This document shows, one piece after another, positions 881 to 1,622 of a stretch of DNA of 64,000 nucleotides (position 1 is its first letter; each line of letters begins with the position of its first letter). The DNA is from Eledone cirrhosa (taxonomy: Eukaryota): positions 26,598,001-26,662,000 of the forward strand of contig OZ024743.1 in assembly GCA_964016885.1 (NCBI GenBank), written 5' to 3'. A program made the translations under genes and the position numbers. Below the pieces are notes generated by a model, which worked only from the letters and a program-made list of their open reading frames with translations, did not search any database and was not told where the DNA came from.

Positions 881-975
881 TAGTGTGTATTTTGCAATAC
901 AGTGCATGCTTAATTAAAAGCATTTCGAAGACCTTACGCTATTGATTTAGAATAGTGAGAGTCTCACTTACTTTA

Positions 976-1070
976 ATTTTCAGCAAACAGGGGAGATATA
1001 GCTCACAGAGCTCTGTTTCGCACTTTTTGGTACTTATCAAAACTCACTACTCCACCTGTTTGCTGAAAAT
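976..1070 (-). ncRNA. Second copy of the same hammerhead, cleavage triplet mutated to GUG (probably inactive)
   Basis: Minus strand: AGTT-TTGATAA-GTAC-CAAAAA-GTGC-GAAACAGAGCTCTGTG-AGCT, closed by the 16-bp stem ATTTTCAGCAAACAGG/CCTGTTTGCTGAAAAT. Confidence 0.7.
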
Positions 1071-1342
1071 CATGAATGTTTGATTCTTATAGATTTCCAA
1101 TAATAATCAGGAACTGATTATACAGAGCGGTTGCCGGTCAAGCAGAAATTGAAAATTAGAATTGGTGCTCTGAAATAGCGATATATATATGAATGTATAT
1201 ATAGTGTATTTTTCAATACACTGTATGCTTAATTAAAAGCATTTCGAAGACCTTACGCTATTGTTTTAGAGTAGTGACAGTCTCACTTACTTTAATTTTC
1301 AGCAAACAGGGGGAGATAAAGCTGACAGAGCTCTGTTTCGCA

Positions 1343-1421
1343 CAAACAGGCGGAGTAGTTAGCTTTGATAAGCACCAAAAAGTGCGAAACAGAGCTCTGT
1401 CAGCTTTATCTCCCCTGTTTG
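1343..1421 (+). ncRNA. Type I hammerhead ribozyme, U3-A8 variant, GUC cleavage after 1401 (predicted)
   Basis: Stem I CAAACAGG/CCTGTTTG, GGAG/CTCC, AGCT/AGCT; core TTGATAA 1365-1371; stem II GCAC-CAAAAA-GTGC; GAAA 1386-1389; stem III ACAGAGCTCTGT; C17 at 1401. Confidence 0.82.
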
Positions 1422-1622
1422 CTGAAAATAAAGGTCTTCAAAATGCTTTTAATTAAGTATAGTGTATTGCAAAATACACTATATATACATTCATATATAT
1501 GCATTACCGGCTAACCCATGCTAGCGTGGAAAACGGACGTTAAACGAAGATGATGATGATATATCGCTATTTTTTCAGAGCACCAATTCTAATTTTATAT
1601 ATATATATATATATATATATAG

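Follow-up and report, generated by a model that had tools for sequence, protein, structure and literature searches.

Metazoan non-LTR retrozymes are tandem units of 150–450 nt, low in GC and without an open reading frame (ORF), each with a type I hammerhead, and RNA and cleavage have been demonstrated for those of mussel, coral and axolotl (PMC7229834; statements on this and the other articles cited refer to the parts of their text that were covered). In 2020 Penelope-like elements (PLEs) were named 'a strong candidate' for retrozyme mobilisation (PMC7229834), and a study in which 24 of 57 Xenopus retrozyme families matched known transposable elements, nearly all of them PLEs, and in which eight of nine dimers did not cleave, read Xenopus and vertebrate retrozymes as non-autonomous PLEs whose mechanism 'remains to be elucidated' (Li 2026, 10.64898/2026.07.22.740005). 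PLE insertions consist of partial tandems with an inverted 5'-truncated copy and a 30–40-nt tail at one end (Craig 2021, PMC8557442). PAc Poseidon has two RT start sites, both strands being cut and extended, and inserts without ribozyme cleavage in vitro (Frangieh 2024, PMC11167929); the PLE tail is the stretch between the two start sites (PMC11167929). Here we explored how an element at positions 881–1596 of a 64,000-nt stretch of Eledone cirrhosa DNA (the window), and the repeat families related to it, compare with these systems.

Anatomy of the element at 881–1596

The element is a single insertion, in foldback form, of family A, a non-coding repeat of 319 nt. It lies between a TA-rich microsatellite (1–882), into which the left arm blends with its short, S1-type 3' end at about 866–882, and a (TA)13(AC)34 microsatellite (1596–1691); S1 and S2 are two recurrent end sites described below. 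The left arm (884–1343, ribozyme sense on the minus strand) holds about 1.5 units, a full one at 884–1203 (881–1200 in the bounds first proposed) and a 5'-truncated one at 1204–1343 that is 93.6% identical to the first, with a head-to-tail spacing of 319–320 nt. At 1343 two 5'-truncated arms meet in an inversion junction with one base in common. The right, inverted arm (1343–1596, plus strand) aligns over 1343–1479 and 1559–1596 with 90–92% identity, has a deletion of about 40 nt near 1431 and stops at 1596 with the long 3' end (S2, the tail). Within the TA tract of its S1 hairpin sits a later 60-nt insert (1501–1560, plus strand), the 3' tail of an unrelated abundant repeat, with 34 matches to its sequence in 25 of 329 loci and six more elsewhere in the window; we take it to be a SINE/LINE-type repeat tail. 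Alignment and the microsatellite flanks bore out the layout that a sequence-only reading had proposed, namely unit 1, a head-to-tail partial unit 2 and an inverted copy in TA-rich surroundings.

That reading had also assigned one hammerhead to each unit. The type I motif was recovered, but only two hammerheads are complete, unit 2 being cut inside stem II. Both complete ones have UUGAUAA instead of CUGAUGA in a structure scan, giving a U3–A8 core, a rare variant. Hammerhead 1 (1000–1044, minus strand) showed in the same scan the GUG cut site noticed earlier, with H17 at 1004. Hammerhead 2 (1361–1405, plus strand) has an intact motif with GUC, a predicted cut after 1401, and the stems AGCU/AGCU, GCAC/GUGC and ACAG-AGCU-CUGU, the last palindromic. 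Of the third, only the 3' half is left (1320–1343, minus strand), with GUC at 1326–1324, and the arm ends within stem II. The stem variants between copies, AGCT/AGTT in stem I and GCAC/GTAC in stem II, are as previously described, and every change leaves a G–U pair. Hammerhead cleavage sites follow the NUH rule, so that hammerhead 1, with its GUG site, is predicted to be inactive. Since the left arm carries on the ribozyme strand half a ribozyme and a GUG ribozyme, no release of monomers is predicted from this locus. Two consecutive complete hammerheads, which Li 2026 takes to mark an 'active' element, are absent from 881–1596, and the copy is predicted from its sequence to be old, eroded and dead.

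Rfam returned nothing at the gathering score on the element, Hammerhead_HH9 falling below the cut-off with E=2.6e-4 at 1348–1423 and E=1.1 on unit 1, and no ORF of at least 120 aa was found over it. The element lies about 10.6 kb ahead of the first exon detected of a lipid transfer protein gene. Sixteen exon matches on the plus strand between 12195 and 41780 of the window correspond to a bridge-like lipid transfer protein 3 (UHRF1BP1-like) gene, and an exon there is 84% identical to the Octopus bimaculoides protein and 74% to that of Argonauta, as befits an octopod host. The window also contains a decayed pseudo-LTR (pLTR) of another PLE family (2060–2288), a decayed copy of another hammerhead repeat (2715–2880) and a lone weak hammerhead-like motif at 8236.

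Repeat families with two fixed ends

The family A unit of 319 nt is present in thousands of dispersed copies: a first look gave 1,935 candidates in genome G000, the best scored being 94–95% identical, and the 45-nt ribozyme of 1361–1405 has 95 exact copies, as against none for a reversed control. The hammerhead core is kept in 49 aligned copies. The unit has 35% GC and is highly self-paired (z=-6.5 for the linear and z=-4.7 for the circular fold), which, together with its copy number, tandem arrangement and type I hammerhead, agrees with the non-coding retrozyme family that had been proposed. We parsed 76 family A loci, picked by similarity or exact ribozyme match and biased in this way to well-kept copies, and 54 of them were foldbacks formed of a partial tandem and an inverted 5'-truncated copy. 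Relative to the ribozyme cut, the outer 3' ends lie at about +135–142 (S1) or about +165–177 (S2), some 33 nt apart and one per insertion end, while inner 5' ends are scattered. Both ends were canonical in 42 foldbacks, 37 of them S1/S2, four S2/S2 and one S1/S1, where 21 mixed ones were expected (p=1.9e-7). In the predicted fold S1 lies at a hairpin loop; S2, in a multimer or circle, falls within a loop that CAGAGC/GCUCUG pairing closes. Arms reach 2.6 units and copies are 2.5% off the majority; two cut sites were present in 15 of 121 family A arms in a sample biased to long copies, and in one of 64 arms of A and B when the sample was unselected. The insertions whose flanks were inspected stood in AT-rich or (TA)n flanks, a qualitative observation, and because the flanks are microsatellites target-site duplications are unreadable. 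At one locus only, G000:C1:56078400-56079000 (L204:1383-2010), there are about four tandem copies of a 163-nt family A deletion unit without a hammerhead; this unit ends at S2, and one variant alternates between units. Family A and D sequence was also met as contigs in four runs of one study, of unspecified kind and uninformative on expression, and a search for RNA runs with the sequence listed none.

Family B (315 nt, 78% identical to A, 2,767 candidates) has a C3–G8 core, and its insertions end at the same sites as those of family A. A tail 20-mer common to both occurs exactly 4,544 times, and 45 sampled loci with it divided into 22 A and 23 B. Comparison of 12 A with 11 B-type copies showed pairs preserved by double changes in the basal stem (four pairs), in two 3' hairpins and in the S1 hairpin, and covariation of the core 3–8 pair (U–A vs C–G); as differences between two families, these amount to few independent events. 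We count the compensatory pairing, which would reflect selection on the RNA, in favour of the explanation preferred below. Families B and D share the end domain of family A, likewise with compensatory pairing. A further non-coding tandem hammerhead repeat, family E (436 nt, L307:1745-2829, 1,630 candidates), has two fixed ends at +225 and +281, no attached ORF in 29 loci, and a weak profile likeness to A, B and D (E=1.4e-4 in a small library, the reversed control being empty).

Family D, found beside a sampled locus, is 310 nt long, 65% identical to A and B, and has their end domain, a C3–G8 core and a GUA cut site. Counting by exact patterns gave 4,190 matches of one 40-nt ribozyme variant and 1,245 S1 ends, that is, at least 1,245 insertions. 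We took 50 stretches, all on contig C1, of which the palindrome at G000:C1:5388566-5392900 (L282) is an example. The 41 complete foldbacks were all S1/S2; nine had been found by the ribozyme (unselected) and 32 picked by their S1 end, none of the latter being S1/S1. Median arms measure 3.2 units on the S1 side and 4.4 on the S2 side, the longest reach at least 21 near-identical units, and most insertions have two or more consecutive complete hammerheads. Private differences are 0.055% and 0.086%, and family D is extremely young. Fourteen nested haplotypes were told apart in the first 30 stretches, every one of them fixed throughout both arms in all their units. Variants confined to some units occurred in six of about 50 stretches, periodically in one, so that block duplication at the DNA level or assembly error also occurs. 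Among 43 inversion junctions, 24 share 1–11 bases, three are blunt and the other 16 contain additional bases, in part perhaps through mismatch to the D reference used; one young insertion has at its junction a 273-nt GC-rich sequence of unknown origin (L302:1599-1871). Family D, not the 881–1596 copy itself, is the informative member, and with more than 1,000 kilobase palindromes of recent date it probably contributes to structural variation in the E. cirrhosa genome.

A DNA-level origin, as a satellite, foldback, MITE or Helitron-like element multiplied by slippage or DNA rolling circle with an incidental ribozyme, would suit the long palindromes in microsatellites and the periodic variants of some D stretches, which point to block duplication after insertion. 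It would not be expected to give 3' ends that are fixed and strand-specific beside random 5' ends, to combine an S1 with an S2 end in each insertion, or to make RNA stems and the ribozyme core pair covary, and we consider such an origin very improbable.

Template, partner enzyme and alternatives

The reading we hold to be probable is that the element at 881–1596 is an old non-autonomous PLE, a non-LTR retrozyme, that likely spread as a self-cleaved RNA circle of about 319 nt copied by a Penelope-type RT. A cut site is crossed by 106 of 121 family A arms, and 5' ends coincide with it in three of the 106, with four expected; arms that cross the site, and the lack of a pile-up of 5' ends there, argue that the template was not a cleaved linear monomer. 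At two sites not used for selection, diagnostic variants were shared by tandem units in 21 of 25 cases and by opposite arms in 63 of 74 (chance about 45% for both), while private differences were 3.9% within an insertion vs 4.1% between loci. Since diagnostic variants are shared and private changes are not homogenised, a shared template rather than later conversion is indicated. In young family D, new variants were fixed time and again throughout entire palindromes, which fits rolling-circle copying of one monomer.

We picture the following cycle. A multimeric locus would be transcribed on the ribozyme strand, and the hammerhead would cut out monomers to be ligated into circles, by analogy with the mussel, coral and axolotl retrozymes. 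A putative PLE RT/GIY-YIG protein would cut a (TA)n target on both strands and prime cDNA from each, one cDNA starting at the hairpin site S1, about 135 nt past the ribozyme cut, and the other at S2, about 168 nt past it; this step is suggested by the observed fixed ends with one site per end. Each cDNA would roll round the presumed circle and stop at random, as the random 5' ends, many units and single haplotype per insertion of family D suggest. The two cDNA ends would be joined, often at 1–5 shared bases, as the observed junctions indicate, to give a palindrome, and with age the arms would shrink by deletion to the 0.5–2.6 units of A and B.

The same PLE machinery might instead have copied a long linear RNA, transcribed by read-through from a tandem array, in which case the hammerhead would be a dispensable relic and the circle needless. 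PAc uses uncleaved RNA in vitro, and its ribozyme mutants insert normally (PMC11167929); a hammerhead-less 163-nt tandem exists at one locus, and homogeneous source arrays would likewise yield homogeneous daughters. A linear template would, however, need repeated single-unit bottlenecks to fix 14 nested D haplotypes across both arms in a family only about 0.06% old, a fixation for which it accounts poorly, and 5'-truncated copying of linear arrays can only make them shorter. Nor would a dispensable relic be expected to covary at the core 3–8 pair between families or to keep its fixed D variants at tolerated places only (N7, loop II, and G–U or U–U to A–U; six sites, not significant alone). We regard the linear template as unlikely, albeit as the rival that deserves most weight.

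Least probable of all, in our judgement, is a viroid-like RNA that replicates from RNA to RNA and is only occasionally captured as DNA. The circle-sized self-paired unit, with its circular fold at z=-4.7, would be in keeping with it, and RNA–RNA replication has been raised for mussel retrozymes (PMC7229834), whereas a descriptor search of the A loci found the hammerhead in one polarity only, haplotype diversity in D is low, and thousands of orderly insertions fit a transposon. Against the self-cleaved circle copied by a Penelope-type RT, which we continue to prefer, stand a predicted family A hammerhead fold 3.5 kcal/mol above the lowest-energy fold, the hammerhead-less tandem, the D variants at partial frequency, the roughly 15% of A arm pairs that differ at diagnostic sites, 881–1596 among them, and the lack of likeness to the pLTRs sampled, unlike the matches of 24 of 57 families in Xenopus; so do the insertion of PAc without ribozyme cleavage in vitro and the eight of nine Xenopus dimers that did not cleave.

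Autonomous PLEs co-occur in the genome, with RT plus GIY-YIG ORFs of 900–938 aa. A Poseidon-like PLE is very young and abundant, with many intact ORFs of about 900 aa in 3.1-kb tandems whose copies show three differences in 2,700 nt (G000:C2:200827500-200837400, L168, with an intact ORF at 200831518-200834217; C1:311365500-311375400, L169), and a Neptune-like one, in G000:C1:145870300-145877100, has a young 938-aa ORF. The Poseidon-, Neptune- and Hydra-like labels are ones we assume from motifs, those in Craig 2021 among them, not from a tree. Two Neptune-like autonomous families (L092, L093, L055) have U3–A8 minimal hammerheads. The window itself holds, at 55831–59148 in (TA)n, an autonomous-type PLE with RT and GIY-YIG-like motifs, inverted pLTRs and its own C3–G8 hammerheads at 56021 (minus strand) and 59042 (plus strand); its ORF is broken by a frameshift near 56570–56600, it has no Pfam match, and by its motifs it is presumably Hydra-like. 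Further pLTR pieces lie at 54533–55339.

The unit could also be the pLTR of an autonomous PLE yet to be found, the copies being truncated ones of that element, as the end anatomy, the same as in autonomous families of this genome, and the partial sampling of the genome's PLE families would allow. We give this reading very little credence. Units succeed units with no ORF between them, and none of the A, B and D loci examined had an RT plus GIY-YIG ORF between repeat units. Among the 271 arms of 150 A/B loci, only 11 had a sampled PLE ORF within 1.2 kb upstream, these ORFs belonging to several families and lying at various distances, and none of 50 D stretches joined a sampled PLE directly; the search for an adjacent Penelope RT ORF that had been suggested earlier shows, on these counts, that the unit is not the pLTR of an ORF. 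BLASTN and nhmmer found no DNA similarity between the A, B or D unit and the pLTRs of about 12 sampled autonomous PLE families, and searches with the three against GIY-YIG loci, 20 further PLE loci and the Poseidon-like and Hydra-like families returned only TA-repeat or other retrozyme matches.

Direct joins between family A and PLEs, in eight of 76 A loci and two found later, involve about seven PLE families. We considered them as a guide to the partner: five Hydra-type joins have complementary S1/S2 ends (post hoc, p~0.03) and two non-Hydra joins do not, two autonomous families join each other in the same manner (one of 29 loci), and D offered no join. As joins to many families that are absent from D, they were not used to name a partner, and we take them to have arisen later, by deletion within crowded TA tracts. 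Two candidate autonomous elements were also rejected: three exact ribozymes 3.3–3.5 kb apart on C12 belong to a local segmental repeat, and a GIY-YIG ORF adjoining family B in L032 belongs to a neighbouring element that has a pLTR of its own.

Going beyond the single locus, we lean, if only slightly, towards the view that octopods carry a currently active circular-RNA transposon, family D, to which the 881–1596 copy would be an older relative, in which a 310-nt ribozyme-made circle would be copied by a dimeric Penelope RT from both strands of the break at two hairpin starts, writing kilobase palindromes made of identical units, and in which a conserved RNA domain of about 170 nt, unlike the partner's RNA, would suffice for recruitment. 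With the RNA, the target and both start sites named, and the young intact PLE proteins narrowed to a few candidates, the rolling-circle model is testable in the existing in vitro assay.

Comparison with retrozymes and Penelope-like elements

A literature search over top matches, chiefly outside subscription papers and with Repbase and Dfam excluded, returned no cephalopod retrozyme and no two-site foldback insertions of retrozymes, nor did it find in print genomic evidence on retrozyme mobilisation of the kind given here; the text covered of PMC13282606 mentions neither ribozymes nor retrozymes. The sequences support placing A, B and D among the non-LTR retrozymes, a known class. They have in common with the metazoan retrozymes the unit size, one hammerhead per unit, low GC, self-pairing and the presence of PLEs, and those retrozymes, too, come as two families per genome that differ in stem strength, one with a U–U at the base of stem II like B and D (PMC7229834). 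Foldbacks, two fixed ends and (TA)n targeting are seen here and are not described for metazoan retrozymes in the main text of PMC7229834, where 'inverted' has no match; cephalopods are unmentioned in that main text, and the U3–A8 core is a feature of family A. The Xenopus study reached the same conclusion on origin and mobilisation (10.64898/2026.07.22.740005). In the parts covered, its basis was co-occurrence and pLTR homology, with no mollusc and with arrays attributed to unequal crossover, whereas ours is insertion anatomy and haplotype structure, pLTR homology not being found among about 12 PLE families sampled.

The anatomy of families A and D matches the PLE tail (PMC8557442) and the two-start-site cutting of PAc (PMC11167929) and thus supports mobilisation by PLEs, as the sequence-only reading had supposed and as the two-site ends, 5' inversion and TA target suggest. 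The same findings bear on the inversion and one-ended tail of PLE copies, in that a single RNA variant seems to have given rise to both arms. Autonomous EN+ PLEs (PAc Poseidon, Neptune, Hydra and Naiad) likewise have AT-rich or (TA)n targets and a hammerhead upstream of the start sites (PMC11167929, PMC8557442); unlike them, A, B and D have no RT/GIY-YIG ORF, and D has many units per arm. The non-autonomous Chlamys PLEs such as MRC1 are, like A, B and D, non-coding, multicopy and head-to-tail, and their insertions are made by a PLE, as is proposed for A, B and D; as a rule, though, their 3' ends are similar to those of the autonomous partner, and hammerheads are missing from most Chlamys elements (PMC8557442). 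Finally, the hammerheads of the Schistosoma PLE Cercyon show the same U3–A8 covariation as family A (Cervera 2014, PMC4209133); they are minimal, whereas stem III of family A has 4 bp and its loop is palindromic.
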